A DNA stretch of 64,000 bases, taken from Haliangiales bacterium. GTDB lineage: Bacteria > Myxococcota_A > Polyangia > Haliangiales > Haliangiaceae. Position numbers and translations under genes: made by a program. The stretch spans positions 100,097 through 164,096 of the forward strand of contig JBBQEX010000005.1 of the NCBI GenBank assembly GCA_038321315.1, given 5' to 3'. The stretch's first letter is position 1; each line of letters starts with the position of its first letter. Shown here piece by piece: positions 11,752-45,053 of this stretch. The notes beneath the pieces are model-generated. The model had not been told where the DNA came from. It saw only the letters and a program-made list of their open reading frames with translations, and searched no databases.

Positions 11752-11768
11752 GCTGAGTTAGCATCGCC

Positions 11769-13163
11769 GTGATGCCACGTTACGAATTCGTCGAGGGGAC
11801 GTCGAAGAAGTTCTGGGAGATCGCGGTCGCCGGCAAGGCCGTCACCACGAAGTGGGGACGCCTCGGCACACCCGGGTCGGAGAAGACCAAGGCGTTCGCG
11901 AGCCCGGCCGCGGCGCAGAAGGAGCACGACAAGCTGGTCGCCGAGAAGACCAAGAAGGGTTACGCGGCGGTCGGCGGCAAGCCGGCCAAGGCGAAGGCGG
12001 CCAAGGCGGCCGCGCCGGTTGTTGAGGAGCCGCGCAACGCGGCGCTCGAGAAGGCGATCCGCGACGATCCCGACGACGACGGCGCGTACGGTGTGTACGG
12101 CGACTGGCTCGCGCAGCAGGGCCACCCGCGCGGCGAGCTCGCGACCGCGCAGCTCGCGCGCAACACCGCGGTCGCCAAGAAGCTGCTCGCCAAGCACGCG
12201 GCGCTATGGGGCGAGCTCGCCGGGCTCGAGGACGTCGTCACGAACGTGATCTGGAAGGGCGGGTTCATCGAGCGCGCGCGCGTCGCGAACACGTTCGAGC
12301 GCTCGACGATGCACGGCGGCGAGAAGTCGACGATCGACGTCGCCGACGTGGTCGGCAAGCTGCTGGCCGGGCCGGGGCGGTTCCTCCGCGAGCTCGTCGT
12401 CGGGATCGTCGACTACGAGGGCAACGGCTACCGGGACGTCGTGAAGGCGATCGCGGCCCACAAGTCGGTCCCGACGCTGCGCTCGCTGTACTTCGGCGAC
12501 TTCCACTCCGAGGAGACCGAGCTCAACTGGAGCGCGATCGGCGAGATCACCGAGCTCGGCAAGGCGTGCCCGAACCTCCAGCGCCTGAAGCTGCGCAGCG
12601 GCGGCATGAAGCTCGGCAAGCTCGACTTCCCGAACCTCGTCGGCCTCACGATCTTCAGCGGGGGCCTCGATCCGGCGAGCAGCAAGGCGATCGCCGATGC
12701 GAAGTGGCCGAAGCTCGAGAAGCTCGACCTCATGTTCGGGCGCAAGAGCCACGGCGCGCTCGCGACCGCCAAGCCGCTGCAGGCGCTGTTCGACGCCAGG
12801 TCGGTCCCGCGGCTGACCGCGCTCGGGATCAAGAACTTCGAGTTCCACGCCGAGCTCGTCCCGATGCTGTTGCGCAGCAAGCTGCTCCGCCAGCTCGAGA
12901 CGCTCGATCTGTCGCTCGGCACGATGGGCGACGCCGAGGCCGCGCTGCTGCTCGCGGGCAAGGCGCAGCTCGCGCACCTGAAGAGCCTCGACGTCTCGGA
13001 GAACTTCTTCACCGCGGCCGGGTTGAAGACGCTCAAGCAGATCGGCATCCCGATCGAGACCAAGAGCGGCAACGGGAGCGCGTGGAACAGCAACAAGCTC
13101 GGCCAGCGCGACGACGAGGATCCCGAGGATCCGTCGGATCGTTACGCGTCGATCTACGAGTAG
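11769..13163 (+). CDS. WGR-domain protein with a TIGR02996 repeat-companion motif and a leucine-rich-repeat (RNI-like) C-terminal domain.
   Basis: The N-terminus has KKFWEI...TKWGRLGTPG (WGR domain). Then comes DDPDDDGAYGVYGDWLAQQGHPRGEL, a TIGR02996-type motif. The remaining ~300 aa have regular LxxLxLxxN/G spacing (LQRLKLRSGGMKLGKLDFPNLVGLTIFSGGL...). Confidence 0.6.
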   Translation: MMPRYEFVEGTSKKFWEIAVAGKAVTTKWGRLGTPGSEKTKAFASPAAAQKEHDKLVAEKTKKGYAAVGGKPAKAKAAKAAAPVVEEPRNAALEKAIRDDPDDDGAYGVYGDWLAQQGHPRGELATAQLARNTAVAKKLLAKHAALWGELAGLEDVVTNVIWKGGFIERARVANTFERSTMHGGEKSTIDVADVVGKLLAGPGRFLRELVVGIVDYEGNGYRDVVKAIAAHKSVPTLRSLYFGDFHSEETELNWSAIGEITELGKACPNLQRLKLRSGGMKLGKLDFPNLVGLTIFSGGLDPASSKAIADAKWPKLEKLDLMFGRKSHGALATAKPLQALFDARSVPRLTALGIKNFEFHAELVPMLLRSKLLRQLETLDLSLGTMGDAEAALLLAGKAQLAHLKSLDVSENFFTAAGLKTLKQIGIPIETKSGNGSAWNSNKLGQRDDEDPEDPSDRYASIYE

Positions 13164-20919: not shown

Positions 20920-21921
20920 TCAGAACGCGGCGTCGAGGCTGACCTCGCCCTCGACCCCGACCTGGTACGCCGACACGCGGCGCTCGAAGAAGTTCGTGAC
21001 CTCCTGGACGTCCTGAAGCTCGAGGAAGTCGAACGGGTTCTTCGCGTGGTACGTGCGCGCGAGGCCGAGCGTGGCGAGCCGCTGATCGGCGCAGTACTCG
21101 AGGTACGTGCGCAGCTCGCCGACCGACATCCCGGCGATGCCGCCGGCGAGCAGGTCGTCGGCGAACTGGGTCTCGCAGCGGATCGCGTCGTCGAGCATCG
21201 CGCGGATCTCGACCTCGAGCCCGGCATCGAACAGCGTCGGCTCCTCGCGCCGCACGGTCGCGACGACCTCGAACGCGAACGCCATGTGCGCGCTCTCGTC
21301 GCGGAACACCCAGTTCGTCCCGGCCGCGAGCCCGTGCAGGAGGCCGCGCGAGCGCAGGAAGTAGACGTAGGCGAACGCGCCGAAGAAGAACAGGCCCTCG
21401 ACGCACGCCGCGAAGCAGATCACGTTGAGCAGGAACCGCCGGCGATCCTCGATCGTCTCGAGCCGATCGAGCTCGTGGATCGAGTCCATCCACCGCATGC
21501 AGAACGCGGCCTTGGTGGCGATCGACGGGATGGTCTCGATCGCGGCGAACGCGCGCTGGCGCTCGACCGGATCGGGCACGTAGGTATCGAGCAGCGTCAG
21601 GTAGAACTGCACGTGCAGCGCTTCCTCGTAGAGCTGGCGCGACAGGTACATCCGCGCCTCGGGCGCGTTGACGTGCTTGTACAGATTGAGCACCAGGTTG
21701 TTCGCGACGATCGAGTCGCCGGTCGCGAAGAACGCGACGAGACGATGCACGAGGTGGCGCTCGGCGGCCGACATCTTCGCGAGGTCGGCGACGTCGGTGC
21801 CGAAGTCGATCTCCTCGACGGTCCAGGTGTTCTTGATCGCGCCGCGATACATCTCGTAGAACTGCGGATACGCCATCGGACGCAGCGTCAGGTTCATCCC
21901 GGGATCGAGGAGGTTGCTCAC
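20920..21921 (-). CDS. nrdB: Ribonucleotide reductase class Ia beta subunit (R2).
   Basis: ...LLDPGMNLTLRPMAYPQFYEMYRGAIKNTWTVEEIDF...EGLFFFGAFAYVYF...FRDESAHMAFAF..., with the ferritin-like diiron/tyrosyl radical motifs. The start is either the GTG overlapping the nrdA stop (GTGA, giving 21921) or the ATG at 21897. The remainder of the 526-aa ORF is run-through. Confidence 0.85.
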   Translation of the reverse strand: MSNLLDPGMNLTLRPMAYPQFYEMYRGAIKNTWTVEEIDFGTDVADLAKMSAAERHLVHRLVAFFATGDSIVANNLVLNLYKHVNAPEARMYLSRQLYEEALHVQFYLTLLDTYVPDPVERQRAFAAIETIPSIATKAAFCMRWMDSIHELDRLETIEDRRRFLLNVICFAACVEGLFFFGAFAYVYFLRSRGLLHGLAAGTNWVFRDESAHMAFAFEVVATVRREEPTLFDAGLEVEIRAMLDDAIRCETQFADDLLAGGIAGMSVGELRTYLEYCADQRLATLGLARTYHAKNPFDFLELQDVQEVTNFFERRVSAYQVGVEGEVSLDAAF

Positions 21922-24283
21922 TGGCAGGCCTCGCACGCGCCGGGGTTCTCGAGCGAGCAGGCGACCGCGTCGGCGTCGGCGACGACGACCGTGGTCTTCG
22001 CGATCCGCGTCGCCGGGCGCGACCGCAGGTAGTACGTCGTCTTCAGGCCGCGCTGCCACGCGTAGAAGTACATGCTCGACAGCGCGCCGATGTTCGGGCT
22101 CTCGACGAACAGGTTGAGCGACTGGCTCTGATCGAGGAACGCGCCGCGATCGGCGGCCATGTCGATCAGCGAGCGCATCGGGATCTCCCACGCGGTGCGG
22201 AACAGCCGGCGAACCGCGTCGGGCAACTCGACCATGCCCTGCACCGAGCCCTCGGCGATCTTCAGGCGGGTGCGCGTCGGCTCGGTCCACAGGCCGAGCT
22301 TCACGAGCACGTCGACCAGGTAGCGATTGACCTGGATGAAGTCGCCCGACAGCGTCTCGCGCTTGAACAGGTTCGACACCTGCGGCTCGATGCACTCGTA
22401 GCAGCCGGCGATCGACGCGATCGTCGCGGTCGGCGCGATCGCGATCATCAGCGAGTTGCGCAGGCCGGTCTCCTGGATCCGCGCGCGCAGGGCATCCCAC
22501 CGCGCGGGCTCGGCGGGCGTGACCTTCCAGGCGTCGAACTGCAGCTCGCCGCGCGCGGCACGGGTCTCGGGAAACGCCGGGTGTGCGCCCTTGTCGACCG
22601 CGAGCTCGACCGACGCGGTCAGCGCGTGGAAGTAGATCTCCTCGGCGATCTTCGCCGACAGCGCGCGCGCCGCCGGATCATCGAACGGCAGGCTCAGCTG
22701 GAAGAACACGTCCTGCAACCCCATGACCCCGAGGCCGACCGGGCGCCATCGCAGGTTCGAGCGGCGGGTCGCCTCGATCGGGTAGTAGTTGAGATCGATC
22801 ACGCGATCGAGCTGGCGGATCGCGATCCGCACGGTGCGCGCGAGCTTGCCGAAGTCGAACGCGCCGTCGCGCACGTGGCGCGACAGGTTGATCGAGCCGA
22901 GGTTGCACACCGCGGCCTCCTCGGCGGAGGTCACCTCGATGATCTCGGTGCACAGGTTCGACAGGTGCACGGTGCGACCGGGCAGGGCGGTCTGGTTGCA
23001 GCCGCGGTTCGACGCGTCCTTCCACGTCATCCAGCCGTTGCCGGTCTGCGCGAGCGTCCGCATCATTCGCGCGTAGAGGTCGCGCGCCTTCACGGTCTTC
23101 GCCGCGAGGCCGGCCTCCTCGGCGGCCTCGTACGCGCGATCGAACTCCGCGCCGAACAGATCGGGGAGCGCGGGGACGCGCTTGGGATCGAACAGGCTCC
23201 AGGTGCCGTTCGCCTCGACCCGCCGCATGAACAGATCGGGGATCCAGTTCGCGATGTTGAGGTTGTGCGTGCGGCTGGCCTCGTCGCCGGTGTTGTCGCG
23301 CAGCTCGAGGAACGCCTCGATGTCGGCGTGCCACGACTCGAGGTAGACGCACGCCGCGCCCTTGCGCTTGCCACCCTGGTTGACCGCGGACACCGAGGCG
23401 TCGAGCGTCTTGAGCCACGGCACGATGCCGTTCGAGTGGCCGTTCGTGCTCTCGATCAGCGAGCCGCGCGAGCGGACGCGGTGGTATGCGAGGCCGATGC
23501 CACCGGAGAACTTCGAGAGCAGCGCGACGTCGGTGTACTTGGCGTAGATCGACTCGAGGTGATCGGCCGGCGAGTCGAGCAGGAAGCAGCTCGACAGCTG
23601 CTCGTGCGACGTGCCGGAGTTGAACAGCGTCGGCGAGCTCGGCAGGTACTCGAGCGACGACATCAGGTGATAGAGGTCCATCGCGTCGCCGATCGTCTCG
23701 GTCAGCGCGCACGCGATCCGCAGGAAGAACTGCTGCGGCGTCTCGATCACGAGGCGCGTGATCGGGTGCCGGATCAGGTAGCGGTCGTAGACCGTGCGCA
23801 GCCCGAAGTACTCGAACTCGCGATCGCGCTCGCCGGCGATCGTGTCGTTGAGCTTGCGCGCGTGGCGCACGACCAGCTGGGCGAGCCGCGCGTTGACCAG
23901 GCCGAGCTGGTGGCCGAGCGCGATCGACTGCGAGAACGCGTGGATCTCCTGGTTGCGGACCTCCTTGTCGATGTAGGTCGCGAGCAACCGGGCCGCGAGC
24001 CGGCCGTACTGCGGCTCCTCGACGATCAGCGCGGCGGCGGTCTGGATCGACAGCCGATCGAGCTCGCTCGTGGTCGCGCCGTCGTACAGCCCGCTGATCG
24101 TCTTCATCGCGACGCGCAGCGCGTCGACCTCGGGCAGGCCCGCGCAGCAGCGGTTGACCGCCTTCACGATCTTGCCGACGTCGACCACCTCGCACGATCC
24201 GTCGCGCTTGGTGACCTTCATCGAGGTCTGCGTCAGGGGAACAAATGGGGAAACGGGAACGCGCGGCGACGACTCGATCTGCA
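21918..24283 (-). CDS. nrdA: Ribonucleotide reductase class Ia alpha subunit (R1), with an N-terminal ATP-cone.
   Basis: MQIESSPRVPVSPFVPLTQTSMKVTKRDGSCEVVDVGKIVKAV... The start aligns with E. coli NrdA (LLVTKRDGSTERINLDKIHRVL). Catalytic-region motifs include SNLCTEI, the C-terminal CxxC, and GLKTTYYLR. The ATG near 24283 has a perfect AAGGAG Shine-Dalgarno 6 nt upstream. The alternative start is MKVTK at about 24221. Confidence 0.85.
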
Positions 24284-24319
24284 TCGATGACTCCTTGCAC
24301 CTCCCTCCGAGGTGCGGAT

Positions 24320-24475
24320 GGTTCCGAGCAGGCAGGTATTCGGACTCGCGAGCGCGCCGTGATCGGCACCTACTGTCCACGGTTGTCGTGGAGGTCGTTC
24401 TCGTTTACCGCTGCGGGGCAGTCCCGGACTCACACCGGGTTCCCGTACCAGCTCGGCTATGGCTGAGATTTCTTG
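24320..24475 (-). promoter_or_regulatory. Putative cobalamin (B12) riboswitch in the nrdAB leader.
   Basis: The minus-strand leader reads ...GGUACGGGAACCCGGUGUGAGUCCGGGACUGCCCCGCAGCGGUAAACGAG...GAGUCCGAAUACCUGCC..., which matches the cobalamin riboswitch core (GGGAAnnnGGUGnAAnUCCnnGCnGcCCCGCaACUGUAA and the 3-prime rAGYCMGGAAGRCCUGCC element). A stem-loop GCACCUC-GGAGG-GAGGUGC sits immediately upstream of the AAGGAG SD. Confidence 0.55.
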
Positions 24476-24532
24476 TACGCGCTCGCCCTGACACTCGGCA
24501 ACTAATCGACCACTAAATCTGGGGTCCGAGGA

Positions 24533-26611
24533 TCAGTCGGACACCATGGCTAGGAGATCTCGCACCCGTTGGAGCAAAGAATCCGGCGTCAGCGGCTTCT
24601 GGATCAGCTCGACGCCGGGGTCGAGGATGCCCTGGCTGCCGAGCTCGTCATCCGTGTACCCCGACATGAACAGCACGAGGGACTCGGGGTGGATCTCCTT
24701 CCAGTGGACCGCGAGCTGGGGACCGCCGAGCCGCGGCATGATCACGTCGGTCAGCAGGAGATCGATCGGCAGGTAGATCGTCCGCGCGTCCGCGAGGGCC
24801 TGCTCGCCATCGCTCGCCTCGTGCACGGTGTAGCCGGCACCGCGCAGCACGGTGCAGATCAGCGTGCGCACCTCGTGCTGGTCCTCGACCACGAAGATCC
24901 GAGCGTCGCTCGGGGCCACGACCACCGGCGCCGCACGCGGGGCGATCGGCGCCGCGGGTTTGAGACTGGTCGGCAAGTACACCCGGAACGTGGTGCCGCG
25001 GCCGATGACACTGTCGACCGTGACGTGCCCGCCGCTCTGCTTGCAGATGCCCATCACGGTCGACAGCCCGAGCCCGGTGCCTTTGCCGCGCGGCTTGGTC
25101 GTGAAGAACGGCTCGAACAGGTGAGGATGCGTCTTGGTATCGATCCCGCTGCCGGTGTCGACGACGGCGAGCGTGGTGAACGGTCCCATCGCGAGCCCGA
25201 GCTTGGCGGCGCTCGCCGCGTCGAGCTCGACGCGCGCGGCCTCGAGCGTGAGCACGCCGCCGCGCCCCTCCATCGCGTCGCGCGCGTTGACCACGAGGTT
25301 CATGACGACCTGCTCGATCTGCCCGGCATCGACGATGACGTGGCCGAGCTCTGCCGGCGCGACGATGCGGAGCTCGATGGTCTCGCCGATCAATCGTCGG
25401 ATCATGTCCTCCATCGCGCGCAGCGTCGCGGCGAGATCGATCGCGGTCGGTTCGAGGACCTGCTGGCGCGAGAACGCCAGGAGCTGGCGCGTCAGCTCGG
25501 CGGCGCGATTTCCGGCGCGATCGATCTGGATGACGTCCTGCACCGCGCGGCTCCCGTGCGGCAGCGCGCGCTTGAGGATCGCGGCGTAGCTGAGGATCAC
25601 GGTGAGCAGGTTGTTGAAGTCGTGCGCGACGCCACCGGCGAGGCGGCCGAGCGCCTCCATCCGCTGCGCCTGCCGCAGCTCGGTCTCGAGCCGTTGGGTC
25701 TCGCGCAGGTCGCGCTGCACGGTCGCGAACCCGAGCGGCGTGCCCTCGGAGTCGCGCATGAGGAACGAGCTGATCTGCGTCGGGATCAGCTCGCCGGTCA
25801 CGAAGTGTCGCAGCACGCCCTGACCCTGCCAGCTGCCGCGCTCGCGGATGATGTCGCCGCGGCGGAGGCCATCCTCGGTGTGGAAGTCGGGCAGCGTGAG
25901 GTCGCGGACGTCGCGATCGGGTGGCAGGCCGACGAGCGCGCGGCCCGCCGCGTTGACGAACAGCACGCGCCCGTCGAGCGACGCCATCGCGATCATCTCG
26001 GTGCTGTTCTCGACCAGCGACACGAAGCGCGCGGACTTCTCCTCGGCGCGACGGCGCTCCTCGAGCTCGGCCTGGAGCGAGACCACGAGCTGGGCGTTCG
26101 CGATCGCGAGCGCCGCGTGGTCCGCGAGGCTCCGCGCGAACGCGAGGTCGGCCTCGTCGAACACGCCGCTGTCGGGCGCGTAGCGCATCAACGTGACCGC
26201 GCCGAACCGGCGGCCGCGCGCGTGAAGCGGCACGGCGAGGAAGCTGCGCGGGCGCAGCGCGCAAACGACCGCGGCGAACGGCTGCTCGGCACGTGCGGCG
26301 AGCTCGTCGGGATCGACGTGCAGCATCATGGGGTCGCCGGTGTTCGCGACGCGCGCGGCCAGCCCGACGCCGACCGCCCCGACCTCGACGCGACGGATCG
26401 CTTCGAGCAGGAGCGCGGCCGAAGCCGGATCGCGCGCGGCGGCGGTGCAGTGCTCGGCCCACGCACCCGCGTCATCGACCAGCGCGACCACGCAGCCATC
26501 GCCGATCAGCCGGACGAGCTCGTCGGCGACCGTCGCCAGGAGGCTCGGGTAGTCGGTCGTCGTCTCGGCGAACGCGCGAAACGCCTCGGACAGCGCGAAC
26601 ACCCGATCCAC
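24533..26611 (-). CDS. Hybrid sensor histidine kinase (GAF-PAS-HisKA-HATPase_c-REC).
   Basis: 692 aa. N-terminal GAF-like region, a PAS domain (..VENSTEMIAMASLDGRVLFVNAAG..), the H-box GGVAHDFNNLLTVI, N/G boxes (NLVVNARDAM, DTGSGI, GKGTGLGLS), and a C-terminal receiver (VEDQHEVR..LLLTDVIMP..). Confidence 0.85.
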   Translation of the reverse strand: MDRVFALSEAFRAFAETTTDYPSLLATVADELVRLIGDGCVVALVDDAGAWAEHCTAAARDPASAALLLEAIRRVEVGAVGVGLAARVANTGDPMMLHVDPDELAARAEQPFAAVVCALRPRSFLAVPLHARGRRFGAVTLMRYAPDSGVFDEADLAFARSLADHAALAIANAQLVVSLQAELEERRRAEEKSARFVSLVENSTEMIAMASLDGRVLFVNAAGRALVGLPPDRDVRDLTLPDFHTEDGLRRGDIIRERGSWQGQGVLRHFVTGELIPTQISSFLMRDSEGTPLGFATVQRDLRETQRLETELRQAQRMEALGRLAGGVAHDFNNLLTVILSYAAILKRALPHGSRAVQDVIQIDRAGNRAAELTRQLLAFSRQQVLEPTAIDLAATLRAMEDMIRRLIGETIELRIVAPAELGHVIVDAGQIEQVVMNLVVNARDAMEGRGGVLTLEAARVELDAASAAKLGLAMGPFTTLAVVDTGSGIDTKTHPHLFEPFFTTKPRGKGTGLGLSTVMGICKQSGGHVTVDSVIGRGTTFRVYLPTSLKPAAPIAPRAAPVVVAPSDARIFVVEDQHEVRTLICTVLRGAGYTVHEASDGEQALADARTIYLPIDLLLTDVIMPRLGGPQLAVHWKEIHPESLVLFMSGYTDDELGSQGILDPGVELIQKPLTPDSLLQRVRDLLAMVSD

Positions 26612-29035: not shown

Positions 29036-30739
<1,704 letters not shown>

Positions 30740-30748
30740 GATAGCGCA

Positions 30749-33253
30749 TCACTCCTTCGGAATGACGAGCTTGTCGACCAGCGACTTCAGCGGGGTGTTG
30801 TGGAACAGCCGGTTGAGGGTGTCGCCGATCGACTCGCCCTCGATGACGCGCTGCACCCCCCACGCCTGGGCGACCTTGACGAGCGTCTCGTCACGGCCGA
30901 GCGAGATGAGCGCCTCGCTGAAGTTGCCCGATGCCGCGGTGAACCGCGCAACCGCCGTCTCGGCCTCCGCGCGCAGGAGCTCGATGTGCTCGTCCTGCTC
31001 GCGGGCCAGGAACGCGAGCTCCTGGTCCTTCTCCTTCTTCACGCGCTCGAGGCGCATCTGCTGCTTGTAGCTGTCGACCACCTGCTCGGCCTCGATCACC
31101 TTCTTCTTCTCGTCGGTCTCCTTCAGCGAGTTCGCGATCCGCGCGAGTGCGGTCGCAAGCTCGCTCGTCGCGACCTCGCGGGCCAGCTCGTCCTGCCGCA
31201 TCTTGGTCTGCGCCTTGACCTCGGCCGTCTCGCGACTGATCACCTCGCGCTGGCGGGTGACCGCCAGCTCGCGCGTCAGGTTCGAGAGGTCGATGTTCGA
31301 GCGCACGACGTCGTGCTGCTGGGCGTCGAGCAGGGCGCGGATCTTGTCGTCCTGCAGCACGACCTTCAGCACGTCGACGTCGACGATCCGCATGCCGTTC
31401 GCGGTGAACGCCATGCCGGTGCGCTTGCCCTCGCTCGACTTGCCGAGGATCGCGTCGCGCACTCGATCGGTCGAGTTCGCGTAGAGATCTTCGACCGCGA
31501 GCTTGCGCAGCTGACCCTTCAACACCGAGCGCACGTGATCGCACATCAGCTTCACGTAGTTCTCGACGGCGAACCACCGGAGCGGATCACCCTCGAAGTC
31601 CACCCGGTACGACAGCTGGATCTGCACGTGCACGTGATCCATCGTCTCGACGGTCACGAGGTCCGACACCTGGTTGTTCTCGACGCGCAGGTACGGGGTC
31701 TCGAGCAGCTTGTCGATCGACTTCGGCGTGCCGGTCGACAGCGTCAGCGCCTCGATGCCCTCGTCGTAGTCGAGGAGCAGCGTGGTCGGTCCGACCTCGA
31801 CGCGGCGGCGACCGGTCTTGGCGGTGACGAGCACGGCGTAGCCGGTCCACACCGTGACCTGCGGCGCGCCCTGGTACTTGTTGTCGAGCGTCACCGTGCG
31901 CGGCTGCGTGTAGGTCGAGGCGCGCGAGAACTCGTCGGAGATCAGCGCCTGATCGCCGCTCACGCGACTCGCCTCCATCACCATGCCCGGCGTGCCCGGC
32001 TTCTGCACCCGCTTGCCACCGCGCTCGATGTCACCCTCCGACAAGACGCCATGGCGCGTCGTCGGCACGTTATGGATCAACGTGCGCACGCTCTGGTTGT
32101 AGCCGAGCGCCTCGGTGTTACCCGGGTACCACAGCGCGCACTCGCGATCCGACAGCACGCGGCGCACGATCACCTCGGAGCGCGGGTCCGGCAGCAACAT
32201 CGCCGGGCCACGCACCGTGCGGATCGCACCGGTGAGGCGGTTCATCACGTAGCGCGCCTCGCCGGCCGGGATGGCCGTCGCGAAGTGCTTCGCCTTGCCG
32301 TCGTACTTGATCGCCGAGTGCTCCTCGCGCGGAAAGTAGATCGCGGTGTCCTTGCCGGTGATGAACAGCTCGTCACCGGCGCGATGCACCGCACCGTTCT
32401 CGGTGTAGTCCGCGATCACCTTGATGTGGAGCCCCTGGATCTCGTTGAGCTCGACCGCGCGGAACTTCTTGCTCGCGCGACCACCGTCGTCACGCGCCTC
32501 GACGAACCGCTCCGTCGGCAACGGGAACACGACCTGCGGGCCGATCTCGTAGCGCTTCTTGCCGTTCTCGTCGACGAGGATCGCGTACTCGAGGCGCTCG
32601 AGCGTCAGCGCCTCGCGGGCGTACGCATCGCCGTCGCGCACGACCTCGATGCCGGTCGGCGGGATGTAGAACGACACCTCGGTGCCGCGGATGATCAGCT
32701 GCTTGCCGACGATGAGATCCGGCGGCGGCGTCGCGACGGACGCGACCTCGGCGTCGGTGCCGGCCGGCTTGACGACGGCCTTGCTCCAGTTCTTGCGCGC
32801 CTCGTCCTCGTTGTAGACGCGGACGAGCAGGTACTGGTTCGAGCGCAGGTGGTGGCCCTCGACGACCTCGGCCGCCTGGCCCGGCCACAGCGCGAACGTC
32901 GCCGGGCCCGGCACGATGATCGTGCGACCGATCTCGAGCTCGGCGCTCGGCTGCGCGCTGCCCTCGTCCGGGTGCTTGTTGGCCTTCGCCGGGTTGCGCA
33001 GGATGATGTAGAAGCCCTCGGCGGCGATCGGAGAGATCCGCATCGCCTCCTCGAGTGCATTGACGCCGCGGAACGTGTTCGACGCCGCGTCGTAGGTGAC
33101 GGACCGCTCCTGGGCCGTCGGGTTGATCACCGTCGGACCGCTGTACGTCTTGACGACACCCTTGGTGACGTCCTGCATGTACGCGTAGCTGCCCGGCGGC
33201 AACACGAGGTCGCGCTTCTGGATCTCGCTCATGATGTTGCTCGCTCCCTTCAT
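30749..33253 (-). CDS. Major vault protein (MVP) homologue: MVP repeat domains, an SPFH/shoulder domain and a cap-helix coiled coil.
   Basis: 834 aa. The N-terminus LVLPPGSYAYMQDVTKGVVKTYSGPTVINPTAQERSV parallels human MVP [38 protein letters not shown]. Shoulder: LVTVETMDHVHVQIQLSYRVDFEG versus [24 protein letters not shown]. A long C-terminal coiled coil follows (RETAEVKAQTKMRQDELAREVATSELATALARIANSLKE...). Confidence 0.8.
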   Translation of the reverse strand: MKGASNIMSEIQKRDLVLPPGSYAYMQDVTKGVVKTYSGPTVINPTAQERSVTYDAASNTFRGVNALEEAMRISPIAAEGFYIILRNPAKANKHPDEGSAQPSAELEIGRTIIVPGPATFALWPGQAAEVVEGHHLRSNQYLLVRVYNEDEARKNWSKAVVKPAGTDAEVASVATPPPDLIVGKQLIIRGTEVSFYIPPTGIEVVRDGDAYAREALTLERLEYAILVDENGKKRYEIGPQVVFPLPTERFVEARDDGGRASKKFRAVELNEIQGLHIKVIADYTENGAVHRAGDELFITGKDTAIYFPREEHSAIKYDGKAKHFATAIPAGEARYVMNRLTGAIRTVRGPAMLLPDPRSEVIVRRVLSDRECALWYPGNTEALGYNQSVRTLIHNVPTTRHGVLSEGDIERGGKRVQKPGTPGMVMEASRVSGDQALISDEFSRASTYTQPRTVTLDNKYQGAPQVTVWTGYAVLVTAKTGRRRVEVGPTTLLLDYDEGIEALTLSTGTPKSIDKLLETPYLRVENNQVSDLVTVETMDHVHVQIQLSYRVDFEGDPLRWFAVENYVKLMCDHVRSVLKGQLRKLAVEDLYANSTDRVRDAILGKSSEGKRTGMAFTANGMRIVDVDVLKVVLQDDKIRALLDAQQHDVVRSNIDLSNLTRELAVTRQREVISRETAEVKAQTKMRQDELAREVATSELATALARIANSLKETDEKKKVIEAEQVVDSYKQQMRLERVKKEKDQELAFLAREQDEHIELLRAEAETAVARFTAASGNFSEALISLGRDETLVKVAQAWGVQRVIEGESIGDTLNRLFHNTPLKSLVDKLVIPKE

Positions 33254-33355
33254 CTCGAAGGGGCCGATTTGCAGGACCGAGTCCAGCGATCAGTCCATGC
33301 AGATCCAACTAGTTACGTATAGTAAGATTATCGCAACGGATACGCATTGATACGT

Positions 33356-41399: not shown

Positions 41400-41465
41400 C
41401 GCTGTACATCGCGTCAGCCGGCTCACAGACCTTGCATTCCGGTTTTCTCGACACTTGCTTCACAA

Positions 41466-44400
41466 TTGATCTGGATGTCGACGCCACGAAGCCTGGCGTT
41501 TGCCCCGGCTCTGCCCGAGCAGCACTTCACCGGCAGTGGTCGGTTCGAGCTGCGCCGCGTCCTTGGCGAAGGCTCGATGGGCATCGTCTACGAGGCGTTC
41601 GACCACGAGCGCAACATGGTCGTCGCGTTGAAGACGGTGCGGCGGCTCGATGCCCAGGCGCTGTACCGGCTGAAGACCGAGTTCCGCGTTCGCGTCGATC
41701 TCGAGCACCGCAACCTCGTGCGGCTCGGCGAGTTGCTGCACGACGACGGCGACTGGTTCTTCACGATGGAGCTCGTCGAGGGGTGGCCGTTCCTCGAATG
41801 GGTGCGCGCCGGCTCCGGCGACGCCGAGGATCACGGCACGCCCGACAGTCGCCTGCGCGACGCGATCCGCCAGCTGTCGGCGGGCCTCGAGGTCCTGCAT
41901 CGCGCCGGCAACGTGCACCGCGATCTCAAGCCGTCGAACATCCTCGTCACGCGCAAGGGCCGCGTCGTCGTGCTCGACTTCGGGCTCGTCGGCGAGGCCG
42001 CGCCGGACCGCCGGAGCGCGGGGCTCGACGTCGTCGGCACCGCCGCGTACATGGCGCCCGAACAGGCGCGATCGTCGTCGGTCGGGCCGCCCGCCGACCT
42101 CTACTCGATGGGCGTCATGATGTACGAGGCGATCGGTGGTCGCCTGCCGTTCGATGGCCAACCGCTCGAGATCCTGACGCGCAAGCAGAACGAGGATCCG
42201 TTGCCGCCGCTCGTCGGCGTCGCGCCGACCGAGCTGTCGACGCTGTGCATGGAGTTGCTGCGCCGCCGCCCGCAGGATCGACCGACCACGACGGCGATCA
42301 TCGCGCGGCTCTCGCAGCGCGCGGTCACCGAGTCGGAGAAGCCGCCGCCGTTCGTCGGTCGGTCACCCGAGCTCGCGCGCCTCGATGCCGCGCTCGATCA
42401 GGTCACCAACGGGCAGGCGAGCACGGTGTTCGTCGAGGGCGAGTCCGGCATCGGCAAGACCGCGCTCGTCCGCAGCTTCGTCGATCGCGTTCACGAGCAA
42501 CGCCCCGGCGTGCTCGCACTCTACGGTCGCTGCTACGAGCGCGAGTCGGTGCCGTTCAAGGGCCTCGACAACGTGGTCGACGCGCTCGCGCACGACCTCA
42601 TGCGCCGCCACCCGGTCGACGTCGCGCTTCACATGAGCAACGACATCGACGCGCTCGCCCGCGTGTTCCCGGTGCTGCGTCGCGTGCCAGCGATCGCCCG
42701 GCTCACGGTGCCGCGCCCGGCATCGCCCGTCGAGCTGCGGGCGCGCGCGTTTCGCGGGCTGCGCGCGCTGCTCGCGTCGCTCGCGACCACGCAGACGATC
42801 GTCGTCGTGATCGACGACCTCCAGTGGGCCGACTCCGACTCGATCGCGTTGCTCCGCGAGATCCTGCACCCGCCGAACGCGCCGCGGATCCTGCTCATCA
42901 TCACGCGCCGGGGCGATGCCGGCCCGCGGCCCGAGCTGCCGGGCTCGGTCGAGGCGATCCCGATCGGCCGCCTGTCGGTGGAGGAGGGCCGCGAGCTGAT
43001 CAACCTGCTGACGCCGGGTCGCTCGGATGCCGACGCGCTGGTCGCCGACGCCGACGGCCACCCGATGTTCATGCACGAGCTCGTGCGCCACTCGGGCACG
43101 CCGCTCGCGGCCTCGCGGTTCGACAACGCGCTGTGGGCGCGCATCACGCGCATGGAGCACCGCGCGCGTCGCGTGCTCGAGCTGATCTCGGTCGCCGGCG
43201 CGCCGTTGCCGCAGGGCGTGATCGGGCAGGCCCTCGAGCTTTCGCCGCGCCGGCTCACCAAGGTGCTCGACACGCTGCGCTCGACGTCGCTCGTGCGCAC
43301 CGGCGGTACGCGCAGCAACGATCCGGTCGAGCCGTACCACGACCGCGTCCGCGAGGCGGTGGTCGCGCGCGTGCCCGAGCCACGCCGCCGCCGCTATCAC
43401 CAGCGACTCGCGACCGTGTTGCTCAGCAGCACGAGCTCGAACAAGGATCCGCTCACGATCGTCCGCCACGTCGAGGCGGCCGGCGATGCGAACCACGCCG
43501 GCGAGCTCGCGATCCAGGCCGCGCGGCGGGCCGAGGAGGCGCTCGCGTTCGAGCTCGTCGCCGCGTTGCTCGAGGTCGCGCTCCGGCTGGCGACGCTCGA
43601 CGCCGAGACCCGACGCGAGCTGCTGCTGCGGCGCGCGCAGGCCCTCAGCTACGCCGGTCGCGGCCCCGAGTCGGCCACCGCGTTCCTCGCCGCGGCCGCG
43701 GGCGCCGACGGCGAGACCGGCTTTCAGTGCCGGCGCAAGGCGGCCCACGAGCTGCTCGTCAGCGGGCACATCCACGATGGCCTCGCGCTCCTCCGCTCGG
43801 TGCTCGCCGAGATCGGCGAGGATCTCCCTCGCTCGACCGGCGCGGCGAAGCGCCAGCTGGTGTGGCGCTGGATCAAGATCGCCATCCGCGGCACGCGGTT
43901 CCAGACCCGCACGCTCGATGTCAAGGCGAGCATGGACGAGCTCCGGCTCGACGTGATGCGCAGCGCGTCGCTCGGGCTGTCGATGGTCGACGTGCTGCCG
44001 GGCGCGGCGTTCCAGGCGGGCGCGGTGCTCGTCGCGCTCCGGCTCGGTGATCGCCATCGCGTCGCGTACGCGCTGTGCTTCCACGCGATGTACGTCGCGG
44101 CGAGCGGGACCCGCGTGCGCGCGGCACGGGCGTTCGTCGCGCAGGCGCGCGGCCTCGCGCACGAGCTCGACAACCCGCTGCTGCTCGGCTGGACGCGCGC
44201 GGGCGAGGGCATCATCGAGTTCTTCGCCGGCCACTACGTCGCCGCGCTCGCGACGCTCGACGAGGCCGAGACGTACCTCAGCGAGCAGACCGTGGGCAGC
44301 TCCGCAGAGCTCAACCACATCCGCAACTTCATGATGTTCGCGTTGCGGCGCATGGGGAACTACGACGAGCTGCGCGCTCGCCTGGTCGACTACGTGCGCG

Positions 44401-45053
44401 ACGCGAACCGCCGCGGCGATCGCTACGCCGCGACCTCGTTCGTGTGGTCGTCGAACGTGGTCTGGCTCGTGGCCGACGATGTCGCGCGCGCGCGCAGCGA
44501 TCTCGCGTCGGTCGTGTGGTCGCGTATCGAGGACGGTCTCCACCTGCAGCACTGGTTCCACGTTCGCGCGCAGGCCGAGCTCGCGATGTACGAGGACGAT
44601 CGTGCGCGGATCGAGGAGCTCGTTCCCCAGCTGCGCGCGTTCCTCGGGCCCGCGTTCGCGCACGTCGAGGCGGTCGCGACCGAGACGCGATTCCAGCTCG
44701 GTCGCGTCGCGATCCGCAACGGCGATGCCGCGCTCGCGCGCAAAGAGGTCGCCGCGCTGGCTCACCTGAAGGTGGGCTACGTCCGCGCGTTCGTGAGGCT
44801 GATCCACGCCGCGGCGTTCGTGCTCGAGGGCCGGACCCGCGACGCGCGCGAGGCGCTCGCCGGCGCGATCGCCGACGCCGAGAGCACGCAGATGACGACG
44901 CTCGTCGCGCAGGCTCGCCGCCGGTTTGCCGAGCTCGGCGGCGATGTCCAGGAGATCGCCGCCGCCGATGCCGTGCTGTCGGCGCGCGGCATCGTCGATC
45001 CCGATCGCTTCCTGCGGATCTTCGCGACCTGGCCGACTATGGCTTCGTCGTGA
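41466..45053 (+). CDS. Ser/Thr protein kinase fused to an AAA/NACHT-like NTPase and a TPR region (STAND-type signalling protein).
   Basis: 1195 aa. Kinase domain: LGEGSMGIVYEA, HRDLKPSNILV, DFG and APE motifs. P-loop: VFVEGESGIGKTALV, followed by Walker B VVIDDLQWAD. About 500 aa of helical repeats follow. Confidence 0.8.
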   Translation: MIWMSTPRSLAFAPALPEQHFTGSGRFELRRVLGEGSMGIVYEAFDHERNMVVALKTVRRLDAQALYRLKTEFRVRVDLEHRNLVRLGELLHDDGDWFFTMELVEGWPFLEWVRAGSGDAEDHGTPDSRLRDAIRQLSAGLEVLHRAGNVHRDLKPSNILVTRKGRVVVLDFGLVGEAAPDRRSAGLDVVGTAAYMAPEQARSSSVGPPADLYSMGVMMYEAIGGRLPFDGQPLEILTRKQNEDPLPPLVGVAPTELSTLCMELLRRRPQDRPTTTAIIARLSQRAVTESEKPPPFVGRSPELARLDAALDQVTNGQASTVFVEGESGIGKTALVRSFVDRVHEQRPGVLALYGRCYERESVPFKGLDNVVDALAHDLMRRHPVDVALHMSNDIDALARVFPVLRRVPAIARLTVPRPASPVELRARAFRGLRALLASLATTQTIVVVIDDLQWADSDSIALLREILHPPNAPRILLIITRRGDAGPRPELPGSVEAIPIGRLSVEEGRELINLLTPGRSDADALVADADGHPMFMHELVRHSGTPLAASRFDNALWARITRMEHRARRVLELISVAGAPLPQGVIGQALELSPRRLTKVLDTLRSTSLVRTGGTRSNDPVEPYHDRVREAVVARVPEPRRRRYHQRLATVLLSSTSSNKDPLTIVRHVEAAGDANHAGELAIQAARRAEEALAFELVAALLEVALRLATLDAETRRELLLRRAQALSYAGRGPESATAFLAAAAGADGETGFQCRRKAAHELLVSGHIHDGLALLRSVLAEIGEDLPRSTGAAKRQLVWRWIKIAIRGTRFQTRTLDVKASMDELRLDVMRSASLGLSMVDVLPGAAFQAGAVLVALRLGDRHRVAYALCFHAMYVAASGTRVRAARAFVAQARGLAHELDNPLLLGWTRAGEGIIEFFAGHYVAALATLDEAETYLSEQTVGSSAELNHIRNFMMFALRRMGNYDELRARLVDYVRDANRRGDRYAATSFVWSSNVVWLVADDVARARSDLASVVWSRIEDGLHLQHWFHVRAQAELAMYEDDRARIEELVPQLRAFLGPAFAHVEAVATETRFQLGRVAIRNGDAALARKEVAALAHLKVGYVRAFVRLIHAAAFVLEGRTRDAREALAGAIADAESTQMTTLVAQARRRFAELGGDVQEIAAADAVLSARGIVDPDRFLRIFATWPTMASS

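Follow-up and report, generated by a model that had tools for sequence, protein, structure and literature searches.

Repression of a class Ia ribonucleotide reductase (RNR) by vitamin B12 is attributed to the nrdABS operon of Streptomyces (Borovok et al. 2006, J Bacteriol 188:2512, cited in PMC12528414 and PMC5962746), and B12 control of class Ia RNR was predicted for other bacteria as well (Vitreschak 2003, as cited in the same two papers). Among cobalamin (Cbl) riboswitches, class Cbl-I is defined by a P2 loop-stem-loop and by a P10-P11 element with J11/10 adenosines, which fold back onto the core, opening the binding pocket to the adenosyl group of adenosylcobalamin (AdoCbl); an L5-L13 kissing-loop layout is common to all classes (PMC7367189). 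Here we describe the leader of the class Ia nrdAB operon in a Haliangiales bacterium, located in a 64-kb stretch of contig JBBQEX010000005.1 (assembly GCA_038321315.1), hereafter the window. The leader carries a B12 riboswitch element of a known kind, with an atypical, reduced periphery. The arrangement as such, a B12 riboswitch on class Ia nrdAB, is already known, and the reduced periphery is what differs here. Positions refer to the window, and features lie on the minus strand unless stated otherwise.

The element occupies the 248-nt gap between the stop codon of an upstream hybrid-kinase gene (24533) and the nrdA ATG (24284). The original prediction had recognised a cobalamin-riboswitch-like leader here from two conserved blocks. 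Both can be read on the minus strand (GGGAACCCGGUGUGAGUCCGGGACUGCCCCGCAGCGGUAAACGAG, 24444..24401; GAGUCCGAAUACCUGCC, 24346..24330), and the Infernal scan proposed at the time bears the assignment out. The Rfam cmscan search identified RF00174 (cobalamin riboswitch, clan CL00101) at 24467..24314 (-), covering model positions 1-189 with 60.1 bits and E = 2.1e-12, about twice the gathering score of 31.5; the minimum free energy (MFE) fold agrees with a reduced aptamer of 154 nt. This was the sole Rfam match across the window. A covariance match with E = 2e-12 that is also the only Rfam match is far beyond chance, and the leader element is virtually certain to be a genuine cobalamin-riboswitch derivative. 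An accidental likeness within a GC-rich intergenic stretch would have to produce not only this E-value, but also the positional homology that links it, nucleotide by nucleotide, to relatives' nrdA leaders. In its favour one may note that the folding-energy z-score of the leader, −0.51, is unremarkable, a value that is uninformative at the G+C content of the window (70%), and we give this explanation practically no credence.

The aptamer lies on the same strand as the nrdA-nrdB pair and directly upstream of it, and an aptamer upstream of nrdA is also found in many relatives. The nearest NrdA proteins belong to metagenome-assembled genomes (MAGs) of Kofleriaceae (84-86% identity), followed by those of Sorangium, Nannocystaceae and Archangium (73-76%), which makes the host a myxobacterium from a lineage for which no closer relative has been sequenced. 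RF00174 was found upstream of nrdA at loci of Kofleriaceae, Sorangium, Nannocystaceae, Nannocystales, Archangium, Acidobacteriota and Dokdonella; the same aptamer precedes nrdA in Myxococcota, Xanthomonadales, Acidobacteriota and others. For a survey of loci with enough upstream sequence we used a conservative pattern (L5 or J3/4-P4 seed plus B12 box). It detected the aptamer at 10 of the 11 distinct loci whose NrdA is at least 80% identical (the Kofleriaceae clade), at 14 of 60 GTDB species representatives and 22 of 49 metagenome loci with NrdA 60-80% identical (23-45%), and at a single one of the 36 loci below 60%, which are of the Pseudomonas type. The metagenome scan, with only two loci at 79% identity or above, contributed breadth and few close relatives. 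The gene upstream varies between the nrdA loci that bear the aptamer, which indicates that aptamer and nrdA travel together. The original prediction had called B12 control of an aerobic class Ia enzyme unusual; in this NrdA clade the aptamer on class Ia nrdA is the rule, not the exception.

Two of these loci deserve special mention. In L169 (1-1200), nrdA and metE, the gene for B12-independent methionine synthase (PF08267/PF01717), are transcribed divergently, each with its own cobalamin aptamer, so that the locus pairs two B12-independent isozymes. In Sorangium sp. So ce375 (L057:10677-13133, -), a second RF00174 element (94 bits) beside nrdAB precedes a gene for a TonB-dependent receptor (Plug and beta-barrel domains), presumably BtuB-like. 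Both contexts fit a theme of B12 economy.

The ligand-binding core of the window aptamer is complete. All parts of the four-way junction are present (P3-P6, J3/4 GGGAA, L4, L5 and the B12 box AGYCMGRAnACCUGCC), and the core agrees with the relatives at every column that is invariant among six aligned Kofleriaceae-clade leaders. The MFE fold recovers P1, P4, P5, P6/P7, a capped P9 hairpin and an auxiliary hairpin. The 5' strand of P1, AGCCGAGCUGGU, lies at 24447..24458 and is followed by A-CGGGAAC (24440..24449), with no P2 loop-stem-loop in between; the fold joins P1 and P3 into a nearly continuous helix with a U.U mismatch and a C bulge. P4/L4 (CCCGGUGUGAGUCCGGG) and P5/L5 (CUGCCCCGCAG), at 24411..24439, occupy columns that are invariant across Kofleriaceae leaders, and the CCCC of L5 within this segment is the predicted kissing-loop partner. 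Next comes a capped hairpin, UCCACG-ACAAC-CGUGGA (24376..24392), at the site that in relatives is taken by P10-P11 (GCACUG...GGGAAGC); the J11/10 adenosines are gone. The conserved junction CAGUAGG and an auxiliary hairpin, GCCG-AUCA-CGGC in the window, follow at 24356..24375; relatives keep this hairpin despite a differing sequence. The 3' part (24324..24352) comprises the 3' strand of P7, the B12 box GAGUCCGAAUACCUGCC with AUA as J6/3, and the P1 3' strand UGCUCGG.

Two deletions, read from the cmscan alignments and from a direct alignment of Kofleriaceae-clade leaders, separate the window from these relatives. The interval from GGU to GGGAA measures 24-32 nt in relatives and 2 nt in the window (GGU-A-CGGGAA), and a 5-nt loop takes the place of the distal hairpin GCACUG...CYGGGAAGC, where cmscan skips 37 model positions. 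The aptamers of relatives measure 183-227 nt and score 75-116 bits (99-116 for full-length forms), that of the window 154 nt and 60 bits. The distance from the core to the B12 box is 65 nt, compared with 76-190 nt in full-length aptamers (83-110 in the Kofleriaceae clade) and with 40 and 25 nt in two short aptamers, L126 and L064, which are discussed below. The original prediction had expected helices P2 to P6 to be foldable. The family core does fold, whereas the P2 arm is missing along with the P10-P11 hairpin; membership of RF00174 is unaffected by this, because Cbl-II riboswitches also lack P2.

This combination does not fit either of the standard classes. The P2 loop-stem-loop that Cbl-I has between P1 and P3 is missing, and so is the long P7-P11 extension with its J11/10 fold-back, of which the proximal portion is kept: P7, the GAACGA junction, P8/P9, the AGUAGG junction and the variable auxiliary hairpin. 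The absence of P2 and the short J1/3, with only 1-3 nt between P1 and P3, are Cbl-II traits. The P6 extension, which is a loop or short hairpin in Cbl-II, is 65 nt long here with two hairpins, and the 5-nt J1/3 T-loop, a Cbl-IIa feature, is lacking. The aptamer is therefore a trimmed Cbl-I and neither a standard Cbl-I nor a standard Cbl-II; its descent from Cbl-I follows from the full Cbl-I form of all close relatives. Its corrinoid selectivity may have changed.

Other nrdA leaders illustrate different degrees of reduction. In the Kofleriaceae MAG GCA_036499605.1 (L084, 2797-2979; 74.8 bits), P10-P11 was lost at the same site and capped with a GUAA tetraloop, while P2 was kept. The loci L166, L168 and L169, 90-91% identical to L084 in NrdA, retain the hairpin, and the window is 86% identical to L084; since the closer relatives of L084 keep the hairpin, the losses in L084 and in the window are independent, on relationships taken from a neighbour-joining tree with no bootstrap. 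Short, Cbl-II-like aptamers stand upstream of nrdA in two unrelated lineages, L064 (4789-4931, 54 bits) and L126 (1053-1198, 53 bits). The strand J6/3, which lines the pocket, reads AUA in the window, L126 and L064, three of the four aptamers with a reduced form. Among 46 full-length aptamers it reads AUA once and AGA in 41 (L059 counted), an association with reduction for which a hand-calculated one-sided Fisher test that ignores kinship gave approximately 8e-4. At the far end of the range is the Kofleriaceae leader of L086 (1100-1420), whose NrdA is 84% identical: Rfam detected no aptamer there at E<=0.01, and the conserved positions are mutated (GGGAA to GGCAA, CUGCCCCGCA to CGGCCCCGUA, GGGAAG to GGCAAG, AGUAGG to CGCAGG and ACCUGCC to ACCUACC). 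B12 control seems to have been lost naturally here.

Downstream of the aptamer, the RNA following the P1 3' strand reads AACCA-UCC-GCACCUC-GGAGG-GAGGUGC-AA-GGAG-UCAUCG-AUG. The hairpin GCACCUC/GAGGUGC, which had been noted as abutting the AAGGAG Shine-Dalgarno sequence (SD), is indeed there (24315..24297), with AAGGAG directly after it at 24296..24291, a 6-nt spacer and the nrdA ATG at 24282..24284. The complete P13-type hairpin, UCC-GCACCUC-GGAGG-GAGGUGC-AA-GGA (24292..24318), additionally base pairs with the GGA of the SD: the 7-bp inner stem has a predicted energy of −12.2 kcal/mol, which becomes −14.6 kcal/mol with the UCC:GGA pairing, and in the predicted ensemble the GGA is paired with p>=0.97. 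The P13 hairpin with its GGAGG loop lies 15 nt past the B12 box and 9 nt past the P1 3' strand, and the whole distance from P1 to the SD is 29 nt. The GGAGG of the L13 loop was considered as the true SD and rejected, as it lies 19 nt from the AUG with no nearer in-frame start codon.

Most nrdA leaders have a homologous hairpin after P1, of the form CCUC(C)-G[A/G/C]GG-(G)GAGG. In 20 of 20 hairpins chosen by a finder requiring at least four pairs, and counted by script with 4- and 5-nt loops, all five inner pairs are standard, and positions 2-5 show two to five types of pair (compensatory changes). The hairpin adjoins SD and AUG in both the window and L001, where the protein N-terminus is conserved too (MQIE, MQLE). 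A related SD hairpin, GUUCC-GCGA-AGGAGG, occurs in L084, L085, L166 and L170, and L167-L169 and the relatives outside Kofleriaceae have 150-300 nt of extra leader. In long leaders (L010, L063, L057, L023 and L011) we also observed a second conserved, P13-like hairpin, CGCYC-GCGG-GRGCG, 100-200 nt past the B12 box and preceded by a CU-rich tract. Covariation between L5 and L13 is unavailable, given that the CCCC of L5 is invariant; the G-rich L13 and the adjacent G's are complementary to it, perfectly so in L001 and L081 (CGGGG with CCCCG), and the window offers GGG.

The position of P13, which abuts the SD and pairs with it, and the lack of a terminator make translational repression the most likely mode of control. 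In the mechanism that we propose, the riboswitch would repress the class Ia enzyme when the B12 cofactor is available. The aptamer (24467..24314), which retains the ligand-binding four-way junction in full and has lost the P2 and P10-P11/J11-10 elements, would still bind its ligand. The G-rich loop of P13 would then form the L5-L13 kissing loop, while P13 sequesters part of the SD located 6 nt before the start codon. Bound cobalamin would thereby lock P13 against the aptamer and deny SD and AUG to the 30S subunit, a translational OFF state to which Rho termination or mRNA decay might be a sequel. With no cobalamin, the ribosome would open P13 and translate nrdAB, with nrdB coupled through the GTGA overlap. 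By analogy with Streptomyces, repression by B12 would make sense if a B12-dependent NrdJ is available, and the presumed purpose is a switch to an NrdJ encoded elsewhere. Taken as a whole, this B12-responsive translational OFF switch acting via P13 and the SD is the account that we favour, with reasonable though far from full confidence.

A functional B12 riboswitch could instead exert its main effect on transcription, either through attenuation or through Rho-dependent termination, as reported for Streptomyces nrdABS. The title of Borovok 2006 (cited in PMC12528414) states control of transcription, and the leader of 150-300 nt beyond P13 in many relatives leaves room for other mechanisms. In the window itself, neither a terminator scan nor the sequence revealed an intrinsic terminator, that is, a stem followed by a U-tract, on the minus strand between aptamer and ATG; the gap from P1 to the SD is just 29 nt, with P13 adjoining and partly pairing the SD. 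We regard a mainly transcriptional action in this organism as improbable. Two terminator-like matches on the plus strand (24449-24467) were taken as probable chance, since they are antisense to the leader and no gene on the plus strand ends there.

Several observations weigh against a working switch. Both AdoCbl-selective peripheral elements of Cbl-I are absent, J11/10 adenosines included, and small defects are visible at the base of P7 (A.C), at the base of P3 (C.U) and within P1 (U.U). The L13 sequence is GGAGG in place of the GGGG, GCGG or GAGG of relatives, which leaves only about three contiguous G-C kissing pairs, and the predicted P13 is stable even in ligand-free RNA, which makes a ligand-dependent step invisible to a secondary-structure calculation. 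The predicted cobalamin riboswitch in the nrdAB leader of Pseudomonas aeruginosa is unresponsive to B12 (PMC12528414). No second sequence with the double loss of P2 and P10-P11 was present among the surveyed leaders, so selection on this exact form cannot be demonstrated, and the conservation of the core could merely reflect the recency of the deletions.

The main rival to the proposed switch is that the leader is a relic: the two deletions abolished ligand sensing and left a constitutive structured 5' untranslated region (UTR), too recent to have decayed. The two lost elements, the mismatches in P1, P3 and P7, the unresponsive P. aeruginosa element and the lack of a second double-loss sequence speak for it. 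The fall of the score from 99-116 to 60 bits and the loss of B12 control elsewhere in the clade (L086) agree with such a history. A relic would, on the other hand, hardly be expected to keep all invariants of the core, which L086 has not, together with an undamaged P13/SD platform; moreover, the MFE fold closes both deletion sites neatly into regular helices, with P1 and P3 continuous. Cbl-II riboswitches are functional with neither of the lost elements, and some of them have no J1/3 element at all (PMC7367189, PMC6158498). Reduced forms persist on nrdA in other lineages (L084, L064 and L126), and the G-to-U change in J6/3 that accompanies reduction in three lineages looks like co-adaptation rather than decay. 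On balance we consider the relic unlikely, and the leader element probably still responds to some corrinoid. A more specific proposal, that it is a functional, naturally minimised Cbl-I descendant in which the loss of P2 and J11/10 and the J6/3 G-to-U change shifted AdoCbl-specific sensing to broad or non-adenosyl corrinoid sensing, is put forward as tentative and rather doubtful. Were it true, the window, L084, L126 and L064 would represent a repeated, stepwise path from class I to a class II-like form on one gene.

The operon had been labelled class Ia nrdAB, and protein analysis agrees. Domain and profile searches define nrdA (21918..24284) as the alpha subunit of class Ia RNR, 788 aa in length, with an N-terminal ATP-cone, the all-alpha domain and the RNR barrel; the TIGR02506 score is 705 bits (cut-off 341), and the closest solved structures are those of class Ia large subunits from human, yeast and P. 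aeruginosa. Its N-terminus, MQIE, is conserved in L001, L084, L085 and L166 (MQLE/MQTE/MQIT). M22 (24221) was rejected as an alternative start, as it has no SD and relatives conserve the MQ(I/L/T)E terminus. The beta subunit gene nrdB (20920..21921, PF00268) probably begins with a GTG that overlaps the nrdA stop (GTGA), an alternative ATG being located at 21897. NrdB keeps the Asp/Glu/His iron ligands and the radical Tyr (EEALHVQFY aligned to ENVHSEMY of human p53R2). The ATP-cone of NrdA, the ligands and Tyr of NrdB and the structural neighbours together make class Ia nrdAB the correct name. The Streptomyces operon has a third gene, nrdS; in the window, the open reading frame (ORF) after nrdB had no Pfam match. 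No second RNR homologue, and hence no nrdJ, was detected by tblastn in the window; none of ten large window ORFs checked against Pfam was related to B12, and a literature search on nrdJ in myxobacteria returned nothing relevant.

Upstream of the aptamer, a candidate promoter region (24472..24525) was delineated from motifs common to L001 and L084: an NrdR-box-like site, ACCCCAGATTTAGTGG (24510..24525), a −35-like TTGCCG (24496..24501) and a −10-like TACAAG (24472..24477). A strict sigma-70 scan returned no promoter, and the proposed hexamers rest on conservation with L001. NrdR-repressed promoters have two 16-bp NrdR boxes with a 15-16 bp linker (PMC13584703). The window has a single box-like site that matches 12 of 16 positions of a crude consensus, and one such site (CCAGATTTAGTGG) is what the window, L001 and L084 keep. 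In most relatives outside Kofleriaceae (L017, L023, L057, L020 and L032), two NrdR-box-like palindromes about 31 bp apart overlap a −35 element (TTGAC) and the −10 that immediately precedes P1. A dual control by NrdR and B12 may thus have been reduced in the window lineage, as far as these motifs indicate.

The gene that ends at 24533 encodes a GAF-PAS-HisKA-HATPase-REC hybrid kinase, and the neighbourhood is rich in eukaryote-like signalling genes typical of myxobacterial genomes. They include a Ser/Thr kinase of 1217 aa that also has an AAA_16 ATPase domain (41400-45053, +), a second kinase (Pkinase) ORF (29036-30748, -) and a WGR-domain protein (11757-13163, +). At 30749-33289 (-), an 846-aa ORF matches the Shoulder domain of the major vault protein (MVP; PF11978, 87.5 bits) as well as a Vault repeat (PF17795, 36.5 bits) and is, by these domain matches, a putative bacterial MVP-like gene; it is flanked by the second of these Ser/Thr kinase ORFs.

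The locus would extend B12 control of class Ia RNR, experimentally shown only in Streptomyces, to Myxococcota, and suggests that such control is widespread in a eukaryote-like NrdA clade of soil bacteria. If so, corrinoid availability would set which RNR is used. The nrdA leaders also form a natural series on one orthologous gene, from full Cbl-I through loss of P10-P11 and loss of both P2 and P10-P11 to Cbl-II-like and decayed forms, which could be used to test the role of peripheral elements in corrinoid selectivity and in the interconversion of riboswitch classes.

Among known systems, the window can be compared with S. coelicolor nrdABS, with which it shares, as far as that operon is described in the citing papers, a class Ia RNR operon whose 5' leader bears a cobalamin aptamer and the presumed logic of repressing the B12-independent enzyme when B12 permits the use of NrdJ. 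It differs in host (Myxococcota, Kofleriaceae-like), in its reduced aptamer and in its control, which is apparently translational (a P13/SD hairpin and no terminator), whereas that of Streptomyces is reported as transcriptional. The P. aeruginosa nrdAB operon has an NrdA of the same family (PRK07207 is the best NCBIfam model, and PDB 5im3 is among the top matches) and a long 5' UTR with a cobalamin-like element predicted upstream of nrdA; that element is weak and not B12-responsive (PMC12528414), while the one in the window scores about twice the Rfam threshold.

With the Cbl-I aptamers of T. tengcongensis (4GMA) and S. thermophilum (4GXY), the window shares the four-way junction, the L4 T-loop sequence, L5 and the B12 box as well as the proximal P6 extension (P7, GAACGA junction, P8/P9 and AGUAGG), and it lacks their P2 loop-stem-loop and the P10-P11 hairpin whose J11/10 adenosines buttress the adenosyl pocket (PMC7367189). 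The absence of P2 and of the J11/10 fold-back is common to the window and to the Cbl-II riboswitches env8 (Cbl-IIa, 4FRN) and the E. faecalis eut-type (Cbl-IIb), and its 1-3 nt joint between P1 and P3 resembles the 'short mismatched or paired' J1/3 of Cbl-IIb; Cbl-II riboswitches regulate via an L5-L13 kissing loop, the layout proposed for the window (PMC7367189, PMC6158498). Where they have a loop or short hairpin, however, the window has a P6 extension of 65 nt that contains two hairpins, and the 5-nt J1/3 T-loop of Cbl-IIa is absent. A mixture of peripheral features from both classes is also seen in the yvrC hybrid of B. subtilis, which is functional and promiscuous in ligand binding (PMC7367189). 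That riboswitch keeps P2 and has a short P6 hairpin, a form that L084 resembles, whereas the window shows the opposite combination, with no P2 and a P6 extension of medium length.

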